From: Gemmatimonadales bacterium
GTDB taxonomy: Bacteria; Gemmatimonadota; Gemmatimonadetes; Gemmatimonadales; GWC2-71-9
Length of the DNA: 64,000 bases
Reading direction: 5' to 3'
Assembly (NCBI GenBank): GCA_036555485.1
Contig: DATBLG010000004.1
Span: 2,090 to 66,089 of the forward strand
This document shows, piece by piece, positions 4,487 to 58,143 of this stretch (the stretch's first letter is position 1; each line of letters begins with the position of its first letter). The notes under the pieces are model-generated. The model was not told the origin of the DNA. It saw only the letters and a program-made list of their open reading frames with translations, and did no database searches. Made by a program: the position numbers and the translations under genes.

Positions 4487-5836
4487 CTATTCGAGATGGT
4501 ACCGATGCATCTTGTAAAACAGCGTCCGGAGGCTGATCCCGAGCTGCTCGGCGGCCGCTCGACGGTTGCCGTCCGCGGCCTGGAGGCCCTCGAGGATCGC
4601 TTGCCGTTCGGCCTGCTCGGCGATCTCGCGCAACGTCCGACCGGCTGCTCCGGGAACCGGTGGGGCAACGGCTGGAGCGGAATCCTGGCGCAGGTCGTCG
4701 GGCTGCAGCAGCTCATGCCCAGACAGCACGGCCGCACGCTCGATCGCGTTTTCCAGCTCCCGGACGTTCCCCGGCCACCGTTGTGCTTGCAGCCAGGCCG
4801 CCGCTTCGGGGGTGAAGTCGATCAGTCGTCCCAGGCGTCGCGCCAGGCGCGCCGCGAAGTGCCGGGCGAGCGGCAAGATGTCTTCGCGGCGCTGCACCAG
4901 CGGGGGCAGCAGGATGGTGACGACCTTGAGGCGATAAAACAGATCCTCGCGGAAGCGCCCGGCGGCCACCTCGACGTCGAGCGACCGTGCGGTCGCCGCC
5001 AGGAGACGCACATCCACCCGGCGGGTCTTGTTGTCCCCGACCCGGCGGATCTCCTCCTCCTGCAGCACGCGCAGCAGCTTCGCCTGCAGCCCGAGGGGCA
5101 TCTCGCCGATCTCGTCCAGCAGCAGCGTACCGCCATCCGCCTGCTCGAACAGACCGGACTTGTCACCGGTGGCCCCGGTGAAGGCGCCGCGCACGTGGCC
5201 GAACAGCTCGGATTCGAGCAAGCTCTCCGGGATTGCCGCGCAATTCACTCCGATGAAAGCCGCTCCCGCCCGTGGACTGGCGCGGTGGATTGCGTGCGCG
5301 ATGACTTCCTTCCCGGTGCCGCTCTCCCCGGTGATCAGGACCGTGGTCTTGTGCTCGGCGACGCGCTCCACCAGCTCCATGGCGGCCTGCATCGCGGGAC
5401 TGGCCACCACGAGGGCGCGGGCCTCCGGACCACGGTCGAGCTGCGCCCGCAGACCCACGACGGTCCGGCGCAGGCGCTCCCGCTCCTCCGCCTTGCGCAG
5501 CGCCAGCACCACCTCGTCGGGACGAAATGGTTTGGGGACATAGTCGTAGGCCCCCTCCTTCATCGCAGCCAGCGCGGCATCCTCGCCACCATAGGCGCTC
5601 ATCATGATGACCAGCGCGGTCCCGCCCCGATCCCGATAGCCGCGCAGAAACTCGATGCCGCTGAGCTGAGGCATCCTGACGTCGCACAGCACCAGGTCGA
5701 ACGACTCCGCGAGGGCCCGCTCCAGCCCGCGTCGCCCATCGCTTTCGGCGACCACGTCATAGCCCGCATCGCCCAGCAGCAGGCCCAGCGATTGGCGCAG
5801 CCCCGGCTCGTCATCCACGATGAGGACCCGACTCAC
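4487..5836 (-). CDS. Sigma-54-dependent response regulator (NtrC/PilR family: REC + AAA+ + Fis-type HTH)
   Basis: REC domain [27 protein letters not shown]; Walker A GESGTGKE; GAFTGA loop; C-terminal HTH AAAEQLGISLRTLFYKM. I set the start at GTG 5836-5834, which overlaps the kinase stop (GTGA). The 6175 start in the track is an artefactual extension. Confidence 0.85.
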   Translation of the reverse strand: MSRVLIVDDEPGLRQSLGLLLGDAGYDVVAESDGRRGLERALAESFDLVLCDVRMPQLSGIEFLRGYRDRGGTALVIMMSAYGGEDAALAAMKEGAYDYVPKPFRPDEVVLALRKAEERERLRRTVVGLRAQLDRGPEARALVVASPAMQAAMELVERVAEHKTTVLITGESGTGKEVIAHAIHRASPRAGAAFIGVNCAAIPESLLESELFGHVRGAFTGATGDKSGLFEQADGGTLLLDEIGEMPLGLQAKLLRVLQEEEIRRVGDNKTRRVDVRLLAATARSLDVEVAAGRFREDLFYRLKVVTILLPPLVQRREDILPLARHFAARLARRLGRLIDFTPEAAAWLQAQRWPGNVRELENAIERAAVLSGHELLQPDDLRQDSAPAVAPPVPGAAGRTLREIAEQAERQAILEGLQAADGNRRAAAEQLGISLRTLFYKMHRYHLE

Positions 5837-6963
5837 CGCCCCGCCTCCGGAAAGAACAGCTTGAACGCCGCACCACCCTCGCGCGCCTGCTCGAGCCACA
5901 CGACCCCACCCATGTCGTAGACCGCTCGGGCCACGATCGCGAGCCCAAGGCCGGTGCCCCGGCCGGGCTCCTTGGTGGTAAAGAAGGGCTCGAAGATCTG
6001 CTCGCGATCCCCTGCACGCACTCCCGGCCCCGAGTCGGCGACGAAGATCAGCACCCCCGGCGCGCCCGCGGCGATCTCGCTGCGTGAGGGCCGCCGTCCC
6101 GGAGCCCTGGGGAAGACGGCGTCGGCGGCGTCGCTGGCCCGTCGCGAAATCAGACGGGCCGGCTGATAGGCCCACGGGCGCGCCCCAAGCACCAGGTCGC
6201 CGTCCGGAGCGGCATCGACGGCGTTGAGCAACAGGTTGACCACGGCCTGCTCCAGGAGGTGCGCCCGGCCCAGCACGGCTGGGAGGTCGGCCGGCAGGTC
6301 GAGCCGGGCCCGCACCGACCGCAGCGTCCCCTGGGCCTGGAGCAGCTCGAACGCCGCGGTGAGCACGACCCCGACGGAGACCGGCTGGGGCGCTTCATCG
6401 TGCGGGCGGGCATAGTCGAGGAGGCTGCGGATGATGCGGTCGATACGGTCGAGCTCGCGGGCCAAGGCGTCGGTCACTTCAGGGTCGCCGCCCCGCTTCC
6501 GCAGCACTTCGACGTACGTCGCCGCCCCGCCCAGCGGGTTGCCGATCTCGTGCGCGATTCCGGCGGCCAGACGGCCGACGCTCGCCAGCTTCTCGGCGCG
6601 CACCAGCTGACTCTGGGCGTCGAGCAGGTGATCCGTCATGCGGTTGAACCGGTCAGCCAGGGTGGAGAAGTCGTCGGTTTCGGCCTGCGGCGCGCGGGCG
6701 TCCAGATCGCCGGCAATGACCGCATCCGCGGAGGCCTTGAGACGCTGCATCGGCTTGAGGATCAGGCGGGTCACCAGGTAGTGGCCGAAGGCAATGAAGA
6801 TGACGACATCCCCGGCCACGACCGCCAGGACGAGAGGAAAGGCCCGCTCGGGAGCGAGGGTACTCGCCAGAAGACTGGTGGCGACTCCTAGGATGAGCGC
6901 TGTCGCCGCGAGGAACGCCAGCTGGACGAGGAGAACAGTTCTCAGTGGGGGTTTGACGGCCAC
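5833..6963 (-). CDS. Sensor histidine kinase (2 TM, minimal periplasmic loop, HAMP, HisKA, HATPase)
   Basis: Two N-terminal hydrophobic helices, a HAMP-like segment, the H-box [13 protein letters not shown] and the G2 box [11 protein letters not shown]. It is translationally coupled to the downstream regulator. The start is GTG at 6963. Confidence 0.8.
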
Positions 6964-6977
6964 GGCCGGTCACCCAA

Positions 6978-7011
6978 ACAGGAACGGCGGGGAAGTCCCC
7001 GCCGTTCCTGT
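6978..7011 (-). terminator. Hairpin terminator downstream of pilA1
   Basis: 15-bp stem ACAGGAACGGCGGGG / CCCCGCCGTTCCTGT with loop AAGT, 23 nt after the pilA1 stop. On the minus strand it is followed by TTTGGGTG. It ends 15 nt before the kinase start codon. Confidence 0.55.
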
Positions 7012-7033
7012 CCCAGATATCACGCCTGAGAAC

Positions 7034-7402
7034 CTACTTGCACTTCGGCTCGCCTTCCTTGGTGGCCTGGGCGATCGCCGTGCTGCCGATGAAGATCGCG
7101 CAGGTCTTGGACGTGTTCAGATTGGTCATTGTCGCCGTCCAGCCGTCGGCGGTCAACGCAATCGTCGGCGTGCCGTTCCCGGTCGTCACGGCGAACGCCG
7201 TGCCGAGGCTCGTGGTGTACTTCACGGAATCCGCGAAGTACGCCTCTTCCGCCGTCACCAGGTTGCGGAGATCCGACTTCATCGAGGCGAGGTACGCCTT
7301 CTCCTTCGTGTTGGCAAACTTCGGGATCGCGATGGCGGCCAGAATGCCGATAATCACCACCACGATCAGCAGCTCAATGAGCGTGAAACCCTTGCGGTTC
7401 AT
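7034..7402 (-). CDS. pilA: Type IVa major pilin PilA (copy 1)
   Basis: MNRKG|FTLIELLIVVVIIGILAAIAIPKF is a canonical short-leader prepilin. There is a C-terminal Cys pair (C101, C121). I chose the ATG at 7402 (GGGAGAA RBS), not 7462 as in the track. Confidence 0.9.
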   Translation of the reverse strand: MNRKGFTLIELLIVVVIIGILAAIAIPKFANTKEKAYLASMKSDLRNLVTAEEAYFADSVKYTTSLGTAFAVTTGNGTPTIALTADGWTATMTNLNTSKTCAIFIGSTAIAQATKEGEPKCK

Positions 7403-7457
7403 CTCGTTCTCCCGGGTTAAGAAATGATGGGCGCCTGTTGTTCCCGACGAGAGCATC

Positions 7458-7473
7458 GGCAAGGCCTGTGCCC
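7458..7473 (-). promoter_or_regulatory. Sigma-54 (-24/-12) promoter for pilA1
   Basis: The minus strand reads GGGCACAGGCCTTGCC. This is GGCAC-N5-TTGC with canonical GG-to-GC spacing, 56 nt upstream of the pilA1 ATG. Two sigma-54 activators are encoded nearby. Confidence 0.6.
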
Positions 7474-7567
7474 TGCTTCGAGCCGCCGCCTAAGCCGATA
7501 CAACATAATGCCTTGGGGGGTCCGGGAACAACCTGCCACGGGTGGCCTGAAGGCCCCGACCCACGCG

Positions 7568-7590
7568 TTTTGCAAGGTCCCGCTTGCAAA
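7568..7590. promoter_or_regulatory. Perfect inverted repeat; candidate enhancer (UAS) for a sigma-54 activator
   Basis: TTTGCAAG-GTCCCG-CTTGCAAA (8-bp arms, 6-bp spacer) lies about 95-117 nt upstream of the -24 element. The protein that binds it is unknown. Confidence 0.35.
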
Positions 7591-7658
7591 CGCACGGCCG
7601 AGCAAGACTAGGATCTGTCGGGCTTTTGCTTACCCTGCGAGGGCACCAAAGGCCTAAG

Positions 7659-7691
7659 ACAGGAACGGCGGGGAAGCCCCGCCGTTCCTGT
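7659..7691 (-). terminator. Hairpin terminator downstream of pilA2
   Basis: Same 15-bp stem as 6978-7011, but the loop is AAG (1-nt deletion). It lies 23 nt after the pilA2 stop. Confidence 0.55.
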
Positions 7692-7713
7692 CCCAGATAT
7701 CACGCCTGAGAAC

Positions 7714-8082
7714 CTACTTGCACTTCGGCTCGCCTTCCTTGGTGGCCTGGGCGATCGCCGTACTGCCGATGAAGACCGCGCAGGTTTTCTTGGTGTTCAG
7801 ATTGGTCATCGTCGCCGTCCAACCGTCGGCGGTCAAGGCAATCGTCGGCGTGCCGTTCCCGGTGGTCACGGTGAACGCCGTGCCGAGGCTCGTCGTGTAC
7901 TTCACGGAGTCCGCGAAGTACGCCTCTTCCGCCGTTATCAAGTTGCGGAGATCCGATTTCATCGAGGCGAGGTACGCCTTCTCCTTCGTGTTGGCAAACT
8001 TCGGGATCGCGATGGCGGCCAGGATACCGATAATCACCACCACAATCAGCAGCTCAATGAGCGTGAAACCCTTACGATTCAT
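7714..8082 (-). CDS. pilA: Type IVa major pilin PilA (copy 2)
   Basis: 122 aa. It differs from copy 1 at four residues (V49I, A71T, S98K, I103V). The start is the ATG at 8082 (GGGAGAC RBS). Confidence 0.9.
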   Translation of the reverse strand: MNRKGFTLIELLIVVVIIGILAAIAIPKFANTKEKAYLASMKSDLRNLITAEEAYFADSVKYTTSLGTAFTVTTGNGTPTIALTADGWTATMTNLNTKKTCAVFIGSTAIAQATKEGEPKCK

Positions 8083-8146
8083 CTCGGTCTCCCAGGCTTG
8101 AATGGTGTTGGGCGCTGACAAAAGCTATCCATTTGGGGCAAGGCGG

Positions 8147-50476: not shown

Positions 50477-51655
50477 TCACACGAGGAACAGGTCCCGTTG
50501 CGGGGCCGCCGGCGTCACCTCCGGGCCCGATTCCGCCAGATACACGTTGATCTCACTGCGCACGCCGTAACGCCCTGGGAAGTACACCCCCGGCTCCACG
50601 GAAAACCCGATGCCGGGTTGCAGTTGCCGGGTGTCAGCGGTTTCGAAATTGTCGAGATGGGGACCGGAGCCGTGCAGGTCCCGGTCGATCGAGTGGCCGG
50701 TGCGATGCACGAAGAACTCACCGTACCCCGCCGCCTGAATCACGCCGCGCGCGGCATCGTCGAGCTGCGCTCCGGTGACCGCCCGAGCGCCCCACTGCTC
50801 GACCAGCCGCGCCACCGCCGCGTCGCGCGCCTCCCGGACCACGTTCCACACGCGTGTCACTTCCCCCGGGGGCTCGGCGCCAGCAAACGCCATCCATGTC
50901 TGATCGGCGAACACGGTCCCGGGCGCCGGGCCCGCCCACAGATCGAGCAGCAACACCTCGTTCGGTGCGAGACGGCGATCCGCCCCTTCACCCGGCTCGT
51001 AATGGGGATTGGCGGCATTCTCCGCGAACGCGGCAAGCGGCGGATGGTCGGTGACCAGGCCGGCGCGCACGAACGCCTCGAGCACGCGACGCTGTACCGT
51101 GGTCTCACGCACTTCCTCGCCCCGGGCGAGCGCGCCGCCGGCCCAGGTCAGCGCCTCGCGCGCGATCTGGGCCAGCGCTTCCGCCGCGCGGCGGTGTCCC
51201 TCGAGCTCGCCCGAGGACCAGCGCGCCGCGAAGCGGGTCACGAGCGGCGCCGACGACACCACCCGCGCCCCGAACGACTCCAGCAGCTGGACCACGCCAT
51301 GCGGCACGCGATCGAGGTAGGGAACGCCATCCAGTGGCGACACCTCCATTGCGAGGGTCTTGCCGGCGACCAGCGGCTCGAGCAGTGCATGCAGCTCGCG
51401 CCATGCCGAGTAGGGGTGGACCGTGCCGGGGAAGCCGTCGAACGCCTGCAGCTCGATCCGGTGCGCCACGGCCACTGGCGGGCCAGACCGCGGCAGCACC
51501 ACGAAGTAGCGCCGGGTGCTCATTCCATGCACGTCGAGCACCCGCCTGGCGATCGGATTCACGCCGCGGAAGTCGAACAACAGCCAGGCGTCGGCGCCCA
51601 ACTCCTCAAGGGTCGCCGTGAGCGCGGCGAAATCGAAACCGGACAGGGGGGGCAT
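50477..51655 (-). CDS. M24-family metallopeptidase (Xaa-Pro aminopeptidase-like)
   Basis: HRTGHSID, GFSVEPGVY and SEINV motifs. The ATG at 51655 shares 1 nt with the upstream stop (TGATG). Confidence 0.8.
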   Translation of the reverse strand: MPPLSGFDFAALTATLEELGADAWLLFDFRGVNPIARRVLDVHGMSTRRYFVVLPRSGPPVAVAHRIELQAFDGFPGTVHPYSAWRELHALLEPLVAGKTLAMEVSPLDGVPYLDRVPHGVVQLLESFGARVVSSAPLVTRFAARWSSGELEGHRRAAEALAQIAREALTWAGGALARGEEVRETTVQRRVLEAFVRAGLVTDHPPLAAFAENAANPHYEPGEGADRRLAPNEVLLLDLWAGPAPGTVFADQTWMAFAGAEPPGEVTRVWNVVREARDAAVARLVEQWGARAVTGAQLDDAARGVIQAAGYGEFFVHRTGHSIDRDLHGSGPHLDNFETADTRQLQPGIGFSVEPGVYFPGRYGVRSEINVYLAESGPEVTPAAPQRDLFLV

Positions 51656-52260
51656 CAGTGGTGCCTCGGATCGGGTGTAGCCGCGCGCCACTCGCAGCGG
51701 TCGACGCCGCCGCTGCGGCACGCGGTGTGGAGCATCGCGCTCTCGAAGCCCATCAGGAGGCGCAGCAGCTCGGCGAACGCCGCGGAGTACAGGACGCAGG
51801 CCGCGCCATCGGGGGTCGCGCGGATCGCGAGCGCATCGCGCACGCGGGCCACCGGCAGCCGTCCTTCGCGGCCCAGCTCACCGCCCAGCACCACCCGGGC
51901 GGCGCGCCGGGCGGCGGCGTACCCGAGACTGTTGGGCGCCAGCCAGGCCAAGAGCCGCGCGCCGATGAACGCCCGACGCACCGCGCGGCGCGCCGCGCGC
52001 CGACCCGCATCGGCGAACACGAGGTCGGCGTCCGGCCGCCGGCCCACCAGTCGCAACAACGCTTCGACGTGCGCCGGTGCCACGCGCGCGTCGCGGCGCA
52101 CCAGCGCCTCGTATTCGGCGAGCTGCGTCTGCACGGTCGCCGAGAGGCCGAAGCGCTTGATGAGAAGCTCGTCGGCGAACTCGCCCAACCCGTCCTCGAC
52201 GGGGGTGTCGAGATTGCGGATGGCCTCGAGCACCGCGAGCGGTAGGATGCTGTGAATCAC
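51655..52260 (-). CDS. Hypothetical protein with a V4R-like C-terminus
   Basis: 201-aa ORF with GC3-rich codon usage. The C-terminal ...HTACRSGGVDRCEW resembles the C-x(7)-C motif of V4R domains. This is a weak assignment. Confidence 0.4.
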   Translation of the reverse strand: MIHSILPLAVLEAIRNLDTPVEDGLGEFADELLIKRFGLSATVQTQLAEYEALVRRDARVAPAHVEALLRLVGRRPDADLVFADAGRRAARRAVRRAFIGARLLAWLAPNSLGYAAARRAARVVLGGELGREGRLPVARVRDALAIRATPDGAACVLYSAAFAELLRLLMGFESAMLHTACRSGGVDRCEWRAATPDPRHH

Positions 52261-52276
52261 GACGCGCGTAACCTAG

Positions 52277-52336
52277 CGCCGTTCCAACCGACCGCGCCAG
52301 GCAACGCACGATCGCGGACTGACGGTTGGAACGGCG
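52277..52336. promoter_or_regulatory. 14-bp perfect inverted repeat in a divergent promoter region
   Basis: CGCCGTTCCAACCG (52277-90) and CGGTTGGAACGGCG (52323-36), separated by 32 nt. It lies 52 nt upstream of the ECF sigma ATG, and the right arm contains GGAAC. Confidence 0.4.
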
Positions 52337-52387
52337 TGGGCACCCCATTGCGGAACCCGGGAGCGGGCGGCACCCTTAGCCTCGTCC

Positions 52388-52984
52388 ATGGCGCACACTC
52401 CCGCTCCAGCTCCGAGCCCGCCCCCCCCTCCAGCCGACGAAAAACGGTCCAGTTTCGAACGCGAAGCGCTGGTGCACCTCGACGCCATGTACCGCGTCGC
52501 CCTGCGACTCACCGCGAATCCCGCCGACGCCGAAGATCTGGTGCAGGACGCGATGCTGCGGGCCTACCGCTCCTGGGATCGCTTCACCCTCGGCACCAAC
52601 GCGAAGGGGTGGCTGCTCACCATCCTCCGCAACCTCTTCATCAATGAGTACCGCCGCCGCCGCCGGCACCCCGAAACGGTCGATCTGGACACAATCGAGC
52701 CGTTCGCGGTGTTTGAGAAAGTGCAGGAGGACCCCCAGGGGGCCTTCTTCGACCGCATCGTAGACGCGGAAGTGCTGCGCGCGGTGGACGCGCTCCCCGA
52801 GGTATTCCGGGAAGCGGTGCAGCTGTCGGACGTGGAAGGGCTGTCCTACGAAGAAATCGCCAAGGTGCTCGACGTCCCCGTCGGGACGGTGAAATCGCGG
52901 CTCTACCGGGGACGCCACATGCTGCAAACCAAGCTGTACGAGTACGCCGTGAGCATGGGATACATCAAAGGACGCACGACATGA
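52388..52984 (+). CDS. ECF (group 4) RNA polymerase sigma factor
   Basis: Region 2 DAEDLVQDAMLRAYRSWDRF..WLLTILRNLFINEYRRR. Region 4 VQLSDVEGLSYEEIAKVLDVPVGTVKSRLYRGR. Confidence 0.9.
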   Translation: MAHTPAPAPSPPPPPADEKRSSFEREALVHLDAMYRVALRLTANPADAEDLVQDAMLRAYRSWDRFTLGTNAKGWLLTILRNLFINEYRRRRRHPETVDLDTIEPFAVFEKVQEDPQGAFFDRIVDAEVLRAVDALPEVFREAVQLSDVEGLSYEEIAKVLDVPVGTVKSRLYRGRHMLQTKLYEYAVSMGYIKGRTT

Positions 52985-53205
52985 ATTGCCGGGAGTGCGT
53001 GGAACACCTCTACGAATACCTGGATCGGGAGATGACCCCGGACCTGGAGCGGGAGATCCGCGCCCACCTGGCCCACTGCCCGCCGTGCGGCGAGCACCAC
53101 GACTTCGAGGCGCTGTTCCTCAAGTTCCTCCACGCCCGCTGTACCACGCAGGGGGCGCCGCCGGTCTTGCGGCGCCGCATCCTCGAGCAGCTGTTCGACG
53201 AGTGA
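52981..53205 (+). CDS. Zinc-binding anti-sigma factor (ZAS, RsrA-like, soluble)
   Basis: 74 aa; C-x2-C..H-x3-C-x2-C (MNCRECVEH...AHLAHCPPCGEHH). ATGA overlap with the sigma gene. Confidence 0.8.
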   Translation: MNCRECVEHLYEYLDREMTPDLEREIRAHLAHCPPCGEHHDFEALFLKFLHARCTTQGAPPVLRRRILEQLFDE

Positions 53206-53888
53206 GGTGGCTCACCCCGGGCGGTGTAGCCGCCGCCCTCATGGTGGGGGGAGCCGTGTGGTGGGGACTCGGGTGGGGCGGCCTGGCGCCTCTGTTCGCT
53301 TTCCTTGTTACTGGCAGCCTCCTGACGCGCCTCGCCGAAGGCGGAGCCGGCCCCCGGACCGCGCGGCAGGTGTTGGCGAACGGTGCGGTGGCAGCGTGTG
53401 CCGCCCTCCTCGGTTCCTGGCCGGCAGCCGCCGGGGCGATCGCCGCGGCCACCGCGGACACCTGGGCCACAGAAATCGGATCCTTCTCCCCCCGTCCCCC
53501 TCGGCTCATCACCACCGGAGCGCGAGTGCCCCGCGGGCGGTCAGGGGGTATGACCCTGCTCGGCACGCTCGGCGGGATCGGGGGCGCGTTCGTCATCGCC
53601 ACGATATCGGCACTCGTGGCCCCCCGACTGCGGGGGCCCGGCGTATGGGTTGTGGGCGCGGCCGGGTGCGTCGGGATGCTGATCGACTCGCTGGCTGGCG
53701 CGACGTTGCAGGCAGCCTACCGGTGCCCCGCGCCAGGGTGCGGCGCGGTCACGGAGCGGCCCGGGCAGTGCCACGGGACAGTCGAGCTGGAACGAGGAGT
53801 GCGATGGCTGAACAACGACGGCGTGAATCTGGTGGGATCCCTGAGCGGCGCATTCGCGGCGGCCGTGGGATCCTCGCTCCCGTCCTAG
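53202..53888 (+). CDS. DUF92/TMEM19-family integral membrane protein (family of plant VTE6 phytyl-phosphate kinase)
   Basis: Multi-TM and Gly-rich (LLGTLGGIGGAFV), with RWLNNDGVNLVGSLSGA near the C-terminus. GTG at 53202 overlaps the anti-sigma stop (GTGA). Confidence 0.65.
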   Translation: MRWLTPGGVAAALMVGGAVWWGLGWGGLAPLFAFLVTGSLLTRLAEGGAGPRTARQVLANGAVAACAALLGSWPAAAGAIAAATADTWATEIGSFSPRPPRLITTGARVPRGRSGGMTLLGTLGGIGGAFVIATISALVAPRLRGPGVWVVGAAGCVGMLIDSLAGATLQAAYRCPAPGCGAVTERPGQCHGTVELERGVRWLNNDGVNLVGSLSGAFAAAVGSSLPS

Positions 53889-53922
53889 CCTTCGTGTTCA
53901 CCCGCCTCGGCTGAGCGCCGCC

Positions 53923-55161
53923 GTGCCGGCGCGTTGGGATGCCATCGTCGTCGGGGCGGGACCGGCCGGTTCCGCGACGGCGCTGCAGCTCGCGCGGGCG
54001 GGCGCGCGTGTCCTGCTCCTCGACCGCGCCCGGTTTCCCCGCGACAAGCCCTGCTCGGAGTATCTCAGCCCCGCTGCCACGCCGCTGCTCGAGCGACTCG
54101 ATGGCGCGCTGGTCGCCGCCGTGGAACGGGCCGCGCCGGGCCGGTTGTATGGGATGCGCGTCGTTGCCCCCGACGGGAACGCTGCCGACGGTCGCTTTGC
54201 CGCCGCCCATCGGTTCGCGAGTCCGCAACCCTACGGCTATGCGTTGCCGCGCACCGTGCTCGACAGCCTGCTCGTGCACGCCGCCCTGCGAGCCGGTGCG
54301 GTTATGGAGGAAGGCGTGCCGGTGGAGGAATTGCTGTACGACCAGGGGGCGGTGGGTGGTGTGGTGGCGCGCGGCGCCGCCGGCGGACGGCCGGCGCTGC
54401 GGGCGCGCGTGGTCGTGGGCGCCGACGGCCTGCGCTCCGTGGTCGCCCGGCGGCTCGGGCTGCGGCGCGCTTCGCGGCCGGAACGCATCGCGTTTTCGGC
54501 GCACTTCACGGGCGTCGGGGGCATGGGCGACGCGGGGGAGATGCACATCGGTTCCCCCGGGTACGTGGGCCTTGGGCCGATCGGCAACGGCGTGACGACG
54601 GTCGCGCTGGTCCTGCCCCGGGCGGTGGCGCGAGCGCGCGCCGCCGCGCTCCGGCAGGATGGCCTCGTGACGGAGCTGGAGCGGTTTCCCCGGCTGCGCG
54701 GCCGGTTCGCCGCCGCCCGCGAGGTGCGGGCGCTGCTCGTCACCGGGCCGTTCGCGCAGTGGTCGCGCCACGCGGTGGCTCCCGAGGGCGGGGCGTTGCT
54801 GGTCGGCGACGCGGCCGATTTTTTCGATCCGTTTACCGGCCAGGGACTGTACGCCGCGTTGCGTGGCGCGGAGCTCGCGGCGGCGACTTTGATCGCGGCG
54901 CTCGCCGCGGAGGGCGGCGGTCCGCTCCGGGCGGCGGCGCTGTCCCCCTACTCGGCGGCGCGGCGGCGCGCGTTCGTCGGCAAATGGGTGCTCGAGCGTC
55001 TCATCGGATGCGGCGTGGGCTGGCCGTGGCTCGCACGGCGCGTCGTGGCTCGGCTGGCGCGGCGCCCCGCCCTGGCGGATCTTGTGGTCGGGGCGACCGG
55101 CAACTTCGTGCCGGCCCGCGCGGTGCTCGCGCCGTCCACCCTTCTCCGGTTGCTCGTGTGA
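53923..55161 (+). CDS. Geranylgeranyl reductase-family FAD-dependent oxidoreductase
   Basis: WDAIVVGAGPAGSATALQLARAGARVLLLDRARFPRDKPCSEYL (dinucleotide fold plus DKPC motif). GTG start at 53923. Confidence 0.8.
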   Translation: MPARWDAIVVGAGPAGSATALQLARAGARVLLLDRARFPRDKPCSEYLSPAATPLLERLDGALVAAVERAAPGRLYGMRVVAPDGNAADGRFAAAHRFASPQPYGYALPRTVLDSLLVHAALRAGAVMEEGVPVEELLYDQGAVGGVVARGAAGGRPALRARVVVGADGLRSVVARRLGLRRASRPERIAFSAHFTGVGGMGDAGEMHIGSPGYVGLGPIGNGVTTVALVLPRAVARARAAALRQDGLVTELERFPRLRGRFAAAREVRALLVTGPFAQWSRHAVAPEGGALLVGDAADFFDPFTGQGLYAALRGAELAAATLIAALAAEGGGPLRAAALSPYSAARRRAFVGKWVLERLIGCGVGWPWLARRVVARLARRPALADLVVGATGNFVPARAVLAPSTLLRLLV

Positions 55162-55643
55162 GCGTGTCGGGCGTCGATCCCGCGCAGTTCCGCCAGCTGC
55201 TCGGTCGTTTCGCCACCGGCGTCAGCGTGGTGACGGCGCGCGCGGTTGACGGCCAACCGCTCGGGATGACCGCGAGCTCCCTCGCCTCGGTGTCGCTCGA
55301 TCCGCCGCTGTTGCTCGTCTCGGTGGACCGGGTCAACGAGATGCACCACACGCTCGAGACGGTGCCGCACTTCGTTGTCAATGTGCTCGCGGCCGACCAG
55401 GAGGCATTGTCGCGAAGGTTTGCGGCGGTCGACGAGAACCGCTTCGACGGCGTGAGGTACCGGGAAAGCCGCCACGGCGTGCCGTTGCTCGACGGCGCCC
55501 TGGCCTACATCGAATGCGTCCGGCATGCGTCCGTTCCGGGCGGCGACCACACGGTGTTTTTCGGCCTGGTCACAGGCGGGACGGTGACGGATCGCCGGCC
55601 GCTGCTGTACTATCGGGGTGGGTATGCGAGTCTGGGGGGATAG
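55158..55643 (+). CDS. Flavin reductase-like (HpaC/NAD(P)H-flavin oxidoreductase family)
   Basis: FRQLLGRFATGVSVVTA..GMTASSLASVSLDPPLLLVSV..YYRGGY. GTG at 55158 overlaps the upstream TGA (GTGA). The track shows it only as the tail of an artefactual 569-aa frame. Confidence 0.8.
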   Translation: MSVSGVDPAQFRQLLGRFATGVSVVTARAVDGQPLGMTASSLASVSLDPPLLLVSVDRVNEMHHTLETVPHFVVNVLAADQEALSRRFAAVDENRFDGVRYRESRHGVPLLDGALAYIECVRHASVPGGDHTVFFGLVTGGTVTDRRPLLYYRGGYASLGG

Positions 55644-55647
55644 TAGA

Positions 55648-55706
55648 GTTGTCAGTTTTCAGTTTTCAGTTGTCAGCTGATCACTGAGAACTGACGACTG
55701 ACGACT
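55648..55706. repeat. Hairpin built from tandem heptamers
   Basis: Left arm GTCAGTT TTCAGTT TTCAGTT GTCAGCT (55651-78). Right arm ACTGAGA ACTGACG ACTGACG (55683-703). By hand-folding, 17 Watson-Crick pairs and 2 G-U pairs in 22 stem positions. It lies between the flavin reductase stop and the SRPBCC start. Confidence 0.55.
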
Positions 55707-55714
55707 ATCGTATC

Positions 55715-56182
55715 ATGCGAACCGTCGACCGCGTTTTGATCCGCGCTCCCCTCGACCGCGTCTTCGCGCTGGCCCGCGACGTCGAACGCTGGCCCGAGCT
55801 GCTGCCGCACTACCGCTGGGTGCGGATGCTCGAGCGCCGCCCCGACGGCGGACGGGTGGAGATGGCGGCGTGGCGACCGTTCGGCCCGCCGCCGCTGCGC
55901 TACCCCACCTGGTGGGTGTCGGAAATGCACGTCGAGCCCGCGGCCGCGACGATCCGCTATCGACACGTCGCGGGGATCACGACGGGCATGGATGTGCGCT
56001 GGAACATGCGGGACGCGGGCGACGGCGGAGGCATCGCGGTGGAGATCGTACATGAGTGGGCCGGTCCGGCCTGGCCGATCGTCGGGCGGATCGCCGCCGA
56101 GGTGGTGATCGGACCGGTGTTCGTGCACGGGATCGCGTCGCGCACGCTCGCCGGCATTCGGCGCCACGCGGAGGCGGCTTGA
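55715..56182 (+). CDS. SRPBCC-superfamily protein (polyketide cyclase/dehydrase or lipid-binding START-like)
   Basis: MRTVDRVLIRAPLDRVFALARDVERWPELLPHYRWV is a typical SRPBCC N-terminus. 155 aa. Confidence 0.7.
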   Translation: MRTVDRVLIRAPLDRVFALARDVERWPELLPHYRWVRMLERRPDGGRVEMAAWRPFGPPPLRYPTWWVSEMHVEPAAATIRYRHVAGITTGMDVRWNMRDAGDGGGIAVEIVHEWAGPAWPIVGRIAAEVVIGPVFVHGIASRTLAGIRRHAEAA

Positions 56183-57420
56183 GCGCGGGGCGGCGCGTGG
56201 TCATCACCGGCGTCGGCGCCGTGACGCCGATCGGGACGGCCGCCGACGGATTGTGGGCGGGGCTCGAGGGTCGCCGCTCCGCGGTGCGCACCCTCACGCG
56301 CTTCGATCCCAGCCCGTTCCGCAGCAAGATCGCCGCGGAGATTCCCGATTTTCGCCCCCAGGACTTTCTCGACACGAAGCGCGCAAAGCGGCTGGATCGT
56401 TTTTCCCAGTTGGCCGTGACGAGCGCCCGGCTCGCATTGCAGGACGGCGCTCTCGATCCGGCGCGCGAGGATCCCGATCGGGTGGGCGCGATGATGGGCT
56501 CCGCCCTGGGAGGCGTCGCCTTTGCGGAGTCGCAGGTCGGCAACTATCTGCGGGAGGGGCCGCGCGGCCTCGATGCCTCACTCGCGCTCGCGGTGTTCCC
56601 CGGCGCGGCGAGCTGCAATATCGCCATCGAGTTTGGATTCACGGGCCCCAATGCCACCAATGCGATGAGCTGCGCGTCCGGGACCATCGCCGTGGGCGAA
56701 GCGTTCCACGCCGTGCGGGACGCGCGGGCGGATGTGATGATCGCGGGTGGCGCGGAAGCGCCGCTCGCGCCGCTCACGTTCGCCGCCTTCAGCAACATCC
56801 GGGCGATGAGCACCCGCAATGACGATCCCGCCACGGCCTCGCGGCCGTTCGACGTGGCGCGGGACGGCTTCGTGATGGGCGAGGGAGCGGCTGTCGTGGT
56901 GCTCGAGGAGCGCGGGCGGGCGCTGGCGCGCGGCGCCCAGATCTACGGTGAAATCGTGGGGTACGGCTGCACCAACGACGCCTACCACATGACCGCCCCG
57001 CGCCCCGACGGCCGCCAGGCGGCGCGGGCCATGCAGCTCGCGCTCGCGGACGGCGACGTGGTGCCGGCAGAGGTCGGCTACGTCAACGCCCACGGTTCTT
57101 CCACTCCGCTCAACGATTCCACCGAGACCCTCGCGATCAAACAGGTGTTCGGGGAACACGCATATCGGTTGGCGGTGAGCGGCACCAAGGGCTACTACGG
57201 GCACGCGCTGGGCGCGAGCGGGGCGATCGAGCTGGCGATCTGCGCCTTGTCACTGGCGCGCGGCTGGTTGCCGCCGACCATCAACCTGTCCAAGCCTGAC
57301 CCCGCCTGCGATCTCGATTGTCTCCCCGGACAGGGACGCGACGCCCAGCCCGATGTGGTTCTCAGCAACTCGTTCGGGTTCGGCGGCGTCAACGCCACCC
57401 TGGTGTTGCGGCGCGCCTGA
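56179..57420 (+). CDS. Beta-ketoacyl-ACP synthase II-like (FabF family)
   Basis: RVVITGVGAVTPIG, active-site ..NAMSCASG.., ..NAHGSSTPLND.., GHALGASG and NSFGFGGVNATLV. The probable TTG start at 56179 overlaps the SRPBCC stop. Confidence 0.85.
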   Translation: MSAGRRVVITGVGAVTPIGTAADGLWAGLEGRRSAVRTLTRFDPSPFRSKIAAEIPDFRPQDFLDTKRAKRLDRFSQLAVTSARLALQDGALDPAREDPDRVGAMMGSALGGVAFAESQVGNYLREGPRGLDASLALAVFPGAASCNIAIEFGFTGPNATNAMSCASGTIAVGEAFHAVRDARADVMIAGGAEAPLAPLTFAAFSNIRAMSTRNDDPATASRPFDVARDGFVMGEGAAVVVLEERGRALARGAQIYGEIVGYGCTNDAYHMTAPRPDGRQAARAMQLALADGDVVPAEVGYVNAHGSSTPLNDSTETLAIKQVFGEHAYRLAVSGTKGYYGHALGASGAIELAICALSLARGWLPPTINLSKPDPACDLDCLPGQGRDAQPDVVLSNSFGFGGVNATLVLRRA

Positions 57421-57468: not shown

Positions 57469-58143
57469 GTGAATGCCACGTTTCGGCCGCTGCTCGCGGA
57501 GTTTCTCGGCACGGCCCTGTTCGTTTTCATCGGCACCGCCAGCATCGTCGCCAACGCGATGACCGCGGGCGGCGTCTCGAGCCTCGGCATCGCGGCGGCG
57601 CACGGCGTCGGCATGGCGGTGCTGATCAGTTCGCTCATGAGCGTCTCCGGCGCCCACTTCAACCCAGCGGTGAGCGTGGGACTGCTCGTCGCCGGGAAGA
57701 TCGACGGCCGGACCTGCGCTCGGTACGTCGGCGCGCAGCTGGTTGGGGCGGTCGCCGGTGCGGCGCTCCTCAAGGCCTTGTTCTCGGCCCCAGCCGTGGC
57801 GGCCGTATCCGCCGGGACGCCGCAGCTGTCGGCGAACATCGGCTTCGTCCAGGCGATCGGGATCGAGGCGGTGTTCACGTTCATCCTCGTTTCCGCGGTG
57901 TTCGGCACCGCCGTATCGAGTCAGGCGCCGAAGATCGGCGGATTTGGAATTGGTCTCGCGATCTTCGTGGCAGCCGTCGTGGCGGGCGGGCTCACGGGCG
58001 CCGCGCTCAATCCCGCGCGGGCGTTCGGCCCGGCGCTCGTCGCCTGGACGTGGCACTCGCAGGCGGTGTATTGGGTCGGTCCGATCGTTGGCGGAGTGGC
58101 GGCGGGGTGGGTTTGGAAAGCGTTCTTACTACCAAAGGCGTAG
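57469..58143 (+). CDS. aqpZ: Aquaporin (MIP family)
   Basis: Two NPA boxes (HFNPAVSVG, ALNPARAFGP). 224 aa. GTG start with GGAGG 8 nt upstream. Confidence 0.88.
   Translation: MNATFRPLLAEFLGTALFVFIGTASIVANAMTAGGVSSLGIAAAHGVGMAVLISSLMSVSGAHFNPAVSVGLLVAGKIDGRTCARYVGAQLVGAVAGAALLKALFSAPAVAAVSAGTPQLSANIGFVQAIGIEAVFTFILVSAVFGTAVSSQAPKIGGFGIGLAIFVAAVVAGGLTGAALNPARAFGPALVAWTWHSQAVYWVGPIVGGVAAGWVWKAFLLPKA

Follow-up and report, generated by a model that had tools for sequence, protein, structure and literature searches.

A portable cassette of ketosynthase and cyclase-like genes interleaved with a predicted redox-controlled host operon in Gemmatimonadales

Do tightly packed bacterial genes that overlap at their starts and stops serve a single pathway? 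The question is raised by a chain of seven plus-strand genes at positions 52388-57420 of a 64,000-nt stretch of DNA (the window; GenBank assembly GCA_036555485.1, contig DATBLG010000004.1), which comes from the metagenome-assembled genome (74% complete) of a Gemmatimonadales bacterium from soil. The chain encodes an extracytoplasmic function (ECF) sigma factor, a zinc-binding anti-sigma factor, a DUF92 membrane protein, a flavin adenine dinucleotide (FAD) enzyme, a flavin reductase, an SRPBCC protein and a ketosynthase that we call FabF2. A preliminary description had taken them together as a stress-controlled module for modifying or salvaging isoprenoid or other lipid chains. Our analysis does not assign all seven to a single pathway. 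They make up one predicted transcription unit that is assembled from a host stress operon and a portable cassette interleaved with it. For the whole, we put forward as the best-supported model a thiol-redox-controlled host operon carrying a ketosynthase-cyclase cassette, without its usual methyltransferase, that parallels the phenolic-lipid operons built around type III polyketide synthases (PKS), a reading that we judge evenly poised between right and wrong.

Host operon and embedded cassette

The features of the locus are collected in Table 1. The coordinates of all seven genes hold under Pfam and NCBIfam models, and the four 4-nt start/stop overlaps described earlier (ATGA at 52981, GTGA at 53202, GTGA at 55158 and TTGA at 56179) were verified, along with gaps of 34 nt (53889-53922) and 71 nt (55644-55714), the second of which contains a heptamer-repeat hairpin. 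DUF92 is read from GTG 53202; the open reading frame (ORF) at 53207-53914 is a shadow frame without a Pfam match. The conserved string runs beyond FabF2 to a gene for a MIP/aquaporin, which keeps this place in most Gemmatimonadales loci. A simple scan of 51.5-58.9 kb found no sigma-70-like promoter, and terminator-like sites were no commoner than expected by chance, with no U-tract terminator inside the string. Of the related loci whose flanks were long enough to left and right, 14 have the exact layout of the window and about 50 more are near variants; the gene arrangement exceeds chance.

Table 1. Features of the locus, in window coordinates, with the profile scores or other measures that define them
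Feature	Position	Strand	Evidence
V4R-like gene, divergently transcribed	51655-52260	-	weak V4R match, 22.3 bits (cut-off 31)
Candidate ECF-type promoter GGAAC-N17-CCTT	52352-52377	+	conserved block; function predicted
ECF sigma factor, nearest to SigH/SigR type	52388-52984	+	Sigma70_r2 71.8 bits; r4_2 62.8 bits
Soluble RsrA-type zinc anti-sigma factor, 74 aa	52981-53205	+	zf-HC2 45.8 bits; TIGR03988 (antisig_RsrA) 71.3 bits
DUF92 (VTE6/TMEM19 family) integral membrane protein	53202-53888	+	PF01940 179.5 bits
FAD enzyme, geranylgeranyl reductase/halogenase superfamily	53923-55161	+	FAD_binding_3 89.6 bits; TIGR02032 145.3 bits; QhpG-like
HpaC/StyB-type NAD(P)H:flavin reductase	55158-55643	+	PF01613 (Flavin_Reduct) 150.7 bits
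Heptamer-repeat hairpin	55647-55706	+	dG -36.2 kcal/mol; z = -6.1
SRPBCC protein, single 155-aa domain	55715-56182	+	PF03364 (Polyketide_cyc) 38.9 bits
FabF2, second beta-ketoacyl-acyl carrier protein synthase II (KAS II) paralogue	56179-57420	+	TIGR03150 510.9 bits
MIP/aquaporin	57469-58143	+	PF00230 178.2 bits; 48 nt past FabF2; last gene of the conserved string

Across the order the syntenic block reads M24 peptidase, V4R-like gene, sigma and anti-sigma factors at some loci, DUF92, FAD enzyme, flavin reductase, methyltransferase, SRPBCC protein, FabF2 and MIP. Since this synteny takes in the unrelated flanking genes for the M24 peptidase and the V4R-like protein, it cannot define a pathway. 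Order-level conservation was therefore rejected as proof of a single pathway, and distant lineages and deletion variants were used instead.

The deletion variants divide the chain in two. One relative (G155; locus L247, G155:C1:1610000-1629999, 8853-11679) carries V4R followed by sigma factor, anti-sigma factor, DUF92, flavin reductase and MIP in tight packing, with MIP directly after the flavin reductase; the FAD enzyme, methyltransferase, SRPBCC protein and FabF2 are all missing from this locus, lost as a unit. A second genome (G174) keeps DUF92 and the flavin reductase beside V4R, the other genes of the string being gone. The reciprocal situation is found on metagenome contigs of widely differing GC content (0.49-0.75) and in distant Gemmatimonadota families, where methyltransferase, FAD enzyme, SRPBCC protein and FabF2 recur in three gene orders; on those contigs outside Gemmatimonadales, DUF92 and the flavin reductase were never seen with the cassette. 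Because host genes persist without the cassette and the cassette recurs alone elsewhere, the chain is a host operon with an interleaved cassette. The host operon, confined to Gemmatimonadales, comprises the ECF sigma factor, the RsrA-type anti-sigma factor, DUF92, the flavin reductase and the aquaporin, while the cassette comprises the FAD enzyme, the SRPBCC protein and FabF2, normally together with a methyltransferase. DUF92 thus belongs to the host operon and not to the cassette.

Within the cassette, nearly all contigs with both genes have SRPBCC directly upstream of FabF2, and the two are jointly present or jointly absent in each of the 10 near-complete genomes checked. Four unpublished genomes (G004, G018, G086 and G125) contribute to tallies alone, and no individual finding depends on them. 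When all ORFs flanking 38 loci were clustered, no further conserved neighbour emerged, and neither an acyl carrier protein (ACP) nor a chain-length factor was linked to the cassette. Publicly predicted fusion proteins (P0137 and P0230), among them a methyltransferase-SRPBCC protein of 403 aa and a FAD_binding_3-SRPBCC protein of 520 aa, join members of the cassette to one another. In families f2 and f3 (L024 9012-10181; L025 8910-10271) the methyltransferase and SRPBCC frames also run on without an intervening stop and are possible fusions. A degenerate form of the locus occurs in G061 (L248, G061:C5:278000-297000, 5473-12533), where the M24, sigma and FAD genes are fragmented, the FAD gene has two in-frame TGA codons, SRPBCC is missing, the KAS is 31% identical and a 21-aa remnant of MIP is left; this state reflects either decay or indel errors of long-read assembly.

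These data also bear on the simplest alternative, in which the genes have no joint function, gene order is merely stable, the overlaps result from genome compaction and the sigma/anti-sigma pair acts on other targets. Such a reading would accommodate a synteny that reaches clearly unrelated neighbours, the survival of the host genes without the cassette, and the lack of sigma and anti-sigma factors from the locus in f2 and f3. It sits poorly with four 4-nt overlaps and a string without internal sigma-70-like promoter or U-tract terminator, with the position of the region's single candidate ECF-type promoter at the head of the string, and with a cassette core kept across distant lineages. In addition, the FAD gene is inserted between two host genes and overlaps one of them. 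We consider the absence of any joint function improbable.

The V4R-like gene is syntenic across the order and is retained whether or not the cassette is present. In XylR/DmpR-type regulators, V4R is the domain that binds small ligands of hydrophobic or aromatic character.

The FAD enzyme and its type III PKS-linked relatives

Spelled out, the isoprenoid reading of the preliminary description would make DUF92 a VTE6-like prenol-phosphate kinase and the FAD enzyme, supplied by the flavin reductase, a geranylgeranyl-type reductase saturating quinone, polyprenol or carotenoid side chains, with the SRPBCC protein as a lipid carrier. The family names suit such a stress-controlled module. The assignment of DUF92 stands (PF01940, 179.5 bits against a gathering threshold of 27.5), no NCBIfam model fits the FAD enzyme better than TIGR02032, the order DUF92-FAD enzyme-flavin reductase is kept in Gemmatimonadales, and some SRPBCC homologues are named COQ10 by JGI. 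The more specific TIGR00297 model gives DUF92 only 95 bits, against a cut-off of 205.85, and no isoprenoid genes are linked to it at the locus.

The identification of the FAD enzyme as a prenyl-chain reductase does not hold. Its TIGR02032 score of 145.3 bits is below the cut-off of 158.8, and the models for MenJ, BchP/ChlP and DGGGPL reductase all score far under theirs. Structures of geranylgeranyl reductases share the substrate-cavity motif YxWxFP. The window enzyme has GYVGLGP (YxGxGP) at this position, and across cassette enzymes and homologues of the type III PKS-linked enzyme the positions of Trp and Phe hold Gly, Ala or Val, with Arg in place of Pro in the homologues of the PKS-linked enzyme. 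On these grounds geranylgeranyl reductase was rejected as a candidate function. A flavin-dependent halogenase (variant B), suggested by the best matches in the PDB, which are FADH2-dependent halogenases, and by the neighbouring flavin reductase gene, was rejected likewise: compared with 5buk, 8zop and 3e1t, the catalytic Lys is replaced by Arg or Leu and WxWxIP by YvGlgP, and the family has no conserved Lys at the halogenase site.

The distribution of the FAD enzyme also argues against the isoprenoid reading, in that the presence or absence of the enzyme follows that of SRPBCC and FabF2 and not that of DUF92, as in G155, and cassettes outside Gemmatimonadales occur without DUF92 or the flavin reductase. 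That reading further leaves the FabF paralogue without a role, and the closest homologues of the FAD enzyme lie in type III PKS operons. Taken with the motif and score data, this makes an isoprenoid module very improbable. Of the earlier, broader proposal of a stress-controlled lipid or isoprenoid module, the part that survives is a coupled and conserved lipid operon headed by a stress switch.

The flavin reductase had been proposed as a possible partner of the FAD enzyme, whose gene shares the GTGA overlap with its own. The partnership is not obligate, since the reductase is missing from cassettes outside Gemmatimonadales and occurs without the FAD enzyme in G155 and G174. It is a host-operon gene that was possibly recruited to feed the FAD enzyme.

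What, then, are the closest relatives of the FAD enzyme? When 151 genomes of the phylum were searched with Pfam for type III PKS, eight were positive, and two of these (G174 and G154) have a type III PKS and no SRPBCC/FabF2 pair. In both genomes the PKS stands in an operon of the hidABC layout, in one row with genes for a DUF2071 protein, a methyltransferase of NF004851 type (about 200-205 bits) and a geranylgeranyl reductase/QhpG-like FAD enzyme. The window FAD enzyme has one genome-wide match in each, which is the FAD enzyme of this operon; in the reverse search, the best and nearly only match of the G174/G154-type enzyme in five cassette genomes is the cassette FAD enzyme. The oxidoreductase of the methyltransferase/oxidoreductase/type III PKS operon is thus the sole close relative of the window enzyme in cassette-less genomes, and the G174 enzyme is 34% identical to it over the full length. 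Cassette and type III PKS-linked enzymes have in common the invariant motifs PRxKxC, GYxGL and GDAAxxxxPFTGxG, including K42, C44 and G216. In an unrooted quick tree a single fully supported branch parts the diverse, deep cassette enzymes from a compact clade of homologues of the type III PKS-linked enzyme, in which linkage to a PKS was confirmed for the G174 and G154 members only. Beyond the phylum, the nearest relatives of the G174 enzyme are planctomycetal (46-55% identity). A tblastn search of plasmids with the FAD enzyme gave no match. From these comparisons the FAD enzyme is probably of the HidB/Fdo type and would serve as the ring hydroxylase of the cassette.

The remaining tailoring genes show the same association. 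The NF004851-type methyltransferase is a single-copy gene, and its linkage is to the type III PKS in some genomes and to the cassette in others. Some cassette operons contain a B12-binding radical-SAM gene between DUF92 and the FAD enzyme (L028 6219-7676), and in G062 (L231, G062:C74, 5241-7843) a gene of this kind, 42% identical to that of L028, shares a 4-nt overlap with the beginning of a type III PKS gene. The radical-SAM protein is probably a C-methylating tailoring enzyme shared by the two systems. No type III PKS was found by Pfam search in the window's own genome, which is 74% complete.

In Planctomycetota, 58 of 96 type III PKS genes lie in methyltransferase/FAD-oxidoreductase/PKS operons akin to hidABC that make alkylresorcinols (PMC10896814), and a type III PKS with a methyltransferase and a hydroxylase can yield alkyl-benzoquinones usable as respiratory electron carriers (PMC9927152). 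The hidABC operon for hierridin (Cyanobium), planctomycetal mtr-fdo-t3pks, srsABC (Streptomyces griseus) and pkqABC (Mycobacterium smegmatis) resemble the cassette in placing a PRK06202-like methyltransferase and a geranylgeranyl reductase/QhpG-like oxidoreductase beside a skeleton-forming enzyme; the products of the published operons are alkylresorcinols, which methylation and hydroxylation convert to quinones (PMC10896814, PMC9927152). Gemmatimonadales have their own methyltransferase/FAD oxidoreductase/type III PKS operon, whose FAD enzyme is the reciprocal best match of the cassette enzyme. The cassette differs in having a FabF-type KAS II and an SRPBCC protein where the type III PKS would be, in lacking the methyltransferase in the genus of the window, and in being embedded in an ECF sigma/anti-sigma operon with DUF92, flavin reductase and aquaporin.

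Ketosynthase, SRPBCC protein and the missing methyltransferase

The condensing enzyme is, as described earlier, a FabF paralogue without an adjacent ACP. It scores above the FabF equivalog cut-off (TIGR03150, 510.9 against 493.75 bits), and the window genome contains this one FabF and no acpP region. Its identity as the housekeeping enzyme was nevertheless rejected, since complete relatives carry two FabFs and the own genome is incomplete: all five near-complete relatives with SRPBCC have an acpP-linked FabF (about 620-640 bits) and an SRPBCC-linked copy (about 500-530 bits), whereas the five near-complete relatives without SRPBCC have the canonical FabF only. The identity of FabF2 to the canonical FabFs of Gemmatimonadota is 44-49%, and its median identity to SRPBCC-linked copies of other lineages is 59%; in a quick tree its clade is split from the canonical FabFs, that of E. 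coli included, with an SH-aLRT value of 100. In E. coli numbering counted from Met1, C164, H304, H341, K336 and F401 are conserved in 41 of 41 FabF2 sequences, and fixed clade-specific changes occur at positions 108, 109, 134-136, 139, 163, 194, 200 and 202, of which 163 adjoins the catalytic Cys. Several of these positions line the FabF acyl pocket.

The SRPBCC protein belongs to a subfamily that extends to other phyla, for example to a 46%-identical protein in Paenibacillus catalpae, and across phyla W26, H32, Y33, R34, W66, H83, G90, M91, W95 and H112 are invariant. A profile of the subfamily searched against the PDB placed BexL first (6e-9), with the aromatase/cyclases (ARO/CYC) WhiE and TcmN at about 1e-6 (overall range 6e-9 to 3e-6); a Coq10-like structure reached only 0.036. 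In the alignment the counterparts of TcmN Y35, W63, W65, S67, M91 and W95 are conserved. By sequence, this is a distinct and highly conserved subfamily related to the ARO/CYCs of type II PKS.

A comparison with minimal type II PKS and the TcmN, WhiE and BexL ARO/CYCs is therefore instructive. Both systems pair a Cys-His-His ketosynthase of the FabF superfamily with an SRPBCC protein, and the type II PKS cyclases are the nearest solved relatives of the cassette protein, which keeps several TcmN pocket residues. The cassette differs from a type II PKS in having neither chain-length factor nor dedicated ACP at the 38 loci and in a ketosynthase that falls with FabF in the tree and passes the FabF equivalog cut-off. 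In TcmN, Arg69 is the catalytic residue used for cyclisation. The cassette protein, unlike TcmN, is a single 155-aa domain with Met at the Arg69 position.

The same observations could be explained by specialised fatty-acid modification, with FabF2, an SRPBCC dehydratase, the FAD enzyme as an enoyl/methylene reductase or hydroxylase and the methyltransferase running a dedicated acyl-ACP cycle on borrowed FabG and AcpP, so as to make a methyl-branched, hydroxy or methoxy membrane fatty acid under stress. A FabF2 above the equivalog cut-off with all catalytic residues kept fits this explanation, as do the lack of a linked ACP, chain-length factor or thioesterase, the presence of C=C reductases in the superfamily of the FAD enzyme, and an SRPBCC protein without the cyclisation Arg of TcmN. 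On the other side, the FAD enzyme and the methyltransferase are single-copy counterparts of enzymes that act on aromatic rings in type III PKS operons (PMC9927152), ARO/CYCs are the best matches among solved SRPBCC proteins, and the B12 radical-SAM tailoring gene ties the cassette to type III PKS as well. On balance we regard fatty-acid modification as unlikely.

In most genera a Methyltransf_11/25 (NF004851-like) methyltransferase lies between the flavin reductase and SRPBCC; in the genus of the window (g1) and in g14 this slot is without one. Relocation was considered and rejected, as the family was not found elsewhere in the window's own genome, in G016 (98% complete), in G001 or in G079 (100% complete). 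G022, also of g1, gave no more than a weak match of 49 bits that covers about half of the model. The methyltransferase has been lost in the window's genus.

The slot that holds the methyltransferase in sister genera is occupied in the window by the hairpin, in which GTCAGTT-like units stand opposite AACTGAC-like units. None of 200 shuffles folded as well as these 60 nt, and no U-tract follows. Similar arrays (GTCAGTY facing RACTGAC) occur in the same genome on contigs C6, C29, C37, C41, C45, C91, C128, C140, C144 and others, which makes the hairpin a dispersed repeat element and not a dedicated signal; its candidacy as a dedicated regulatory element was accordingly dropped. A second type of array, (TGCGGAA)n, was observed on C5, C10, C12 and C15. 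The heptamer arrays are an unclassified repeat family that resembles repetitive extragenic palindromes (REP) or miniature inverted-repeat transposable elements (MITE).

A predicted sigma switch and a proposed model for the cassette

At the head of the string, the score of the anti-sigma factor exceeds the cut-off for RsrA equivalogs (TIGR03988, 71.3 against 62.5 bits), in agreement with its earlier assignment. It is a soluble protein of 74 aa with H29-x3-C33-x2-C36 and no hydrophobic span in the translation, and C3, 26 residues ahead of H29, completes the C3/H29/C33/C36 ligand pattern of zinc anti-sigma (ZAS) proteins. The ATGA overlap joins its gene to that of the sigma factor, for which the best NCBIfam model is TIGR02947 (SigH_actino; 171 bits, below the cut-off of 251).

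Upstream of the sigma gene, ATTGCGGAAC-N17-C(C/G)TT is conserved in genus and family relatives. In the window GGAAC occupies 52352-52356 and CCTT 52374-52377, and the candidate promoter ends 10 nt ahead of the sigma ATG, so that the sigma transcript would be leaderless or nearly so. The pattern GGAA[CT]-N16-18-[CG][CG]TT has a single match on both strands of 50-59 kb, and this is the promoter at the string head. Of about 70 Gemmatimonadales-type loci, about 50 have sigma and anti-sigma factors as the first genes of the string; they are present in most loci of family f1 and in none of families f2 and f3, which indicates that the putative redox control is a family-level addition.

Between the V4R-like gene and the sigma gene, positions 52277-52336 hold a 14-bp perfect inverted repeat within an insertion of about 60 nt that the window shares with just a single relative of its genus (L038). 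In other relatives ...TAGCA is joined directly to CCCCATTGCGGAAC, without the insertion, and in L038 a CTAGC duplication flanks it. The insertion resembles a small palindromic mobile element more than it does a conserved operator.

Two known systems offer analogies. With SigR-RsrA (Streptomyces) and SigH-RshA (Mycobacterium) the window pair shares a short soluble ZAS anti-sigma factor above the RsrA equivalog cut-off, with H-x3-C-x2-C and an N-terminal Cys, translationally coupled to a SigH/SigR-like ECF sigma factor. The consensus of SigR promoters is GGAAT-N18-GTT, which the window promoter, written as GGAAC-N18-(G/C)TT, resembles. The window pair differs in its host, a Gemmatimonadota without mycothiol context, in a sigma factor under the SigH equivalog cut-off, and in an operon that runs straight on into membrane, flavin and lipid genes; redox sensing is ascribed to it by analogy. 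The second system is RpoE-ChrR of Rhodobacter sphaeroides, which controls furan fatty-acid synthesis. There too an ECF sigma factor and a ZAS anti-sigma factor turn on lipid-modifying enzymes against oxidative damage, although that system uses other enzymes (UfaM, UfaD, UfaO), responds to singlet oxygen and has its lipid genes outside the sigma operon. By analogy with SigR-RsrA we infer that the operon is headed by a thiol-redox-sensing sigma/anti-sigma switch, and we predict that it is co-transcribed.

In the model that we propose, thiol oxidation or alkylation of the anti-sigma factor would free the sigma factor, as in SigR/RsrA, and the freed sigma factor would fire its own GGAAC-N17-CCTT promoter and transcribe the entire string. 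FabF2 would condense fatty acyl-ACP with malonyl-ACP, the reductive steps being omitted, and the chain would be folded by the TcmN-like SRPBCC protein and aromatised to an alkylresorcinol- or pyrone-type ring, so that no type III PKS would be needed. Hydroxylation by the FAD enzyme, perhaps supplied by the flavin reductase, would then lead towards an alkyl-hydroquinone or benzoquinone, which in the window's genus would stay unmethylated. Such a product may act as a membrane antioxidant or alternative electron carrier under thiol-oxidative stress. More generally, a FabF-type ketosynthase with a single-domain TcmN-like SRPBCC protein working on the housekeeping ACP could constitute an unrecognised minimal route to resorcinolic or quinone lipids that replaces type III PKS in many uncultured soil lineages and that in Gemmatimonadales is wired to a thiol-redox ECF operon, which would make lipid production a response to oxidative stress; this wider proposal is tentative, and we rate it a little less likely to be true than false.

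Several observations weigh against the model. Its chemistry asks much of a ketosynthase that still scores as a FabF equivalog and is accompanied by neither chain-length factor nor dedicated ACP, and we know of no FabF-type ketosynthase that builds poly-beta-ketones alone; the catalytic Arg69 of TcmN corresponds to an invariant Met throughout the SRPBCC family. The likeness to HidA/B, SrsB/C and PkqB/C does not come from direct sequence comparison. A type III PKS instead of the cassette was seen in just two Gemmatimonadota genomes of the same genus, and two other genomes have both together; in these dual genomes the PKS was not seen beside the methyltransferase/FAD pair, one having neither gene adjacent and the other having its PKS at a contig end. 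With respect to expression, the -10 element in the window is CCTT and not CGTT, and the very stable hairpin ahead of SRPBCC might limit read-through. Loss of the methyltransferase could mean a changed or decaying pathway in the window's genus. The redox switch, co-transcription, all of the chemistry and the product are predictions about members known from their sequences.

The earlier impression that this is not a described pathway still stands, in that no paper on the cassette was found in the literature searched; the cassette is widespread and unstudied. If the model is right, the cassette would represent a third bacterial route to alkylresorcinol and alkyl-quinone lipids, built from fatty-acid-synthase parts, besides type III PKS and DarAB-type condensation, and one that would be invisible to current gene-cluster finders. 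Natural variants provide a comparison set for lipidomics: cassettes with the methyltransferase, without it as in the window, and with the B12 radical-SAM gene, together with the cassette-deleted G155 and with G174, which has the type III PKS operon only. For an abundant, little-studied soil phylum, the model would give a function to a widespread orphan cassette and would provide a direct link between a redox-sensing sigma switch and a membrane antioxidant or electron carrier.

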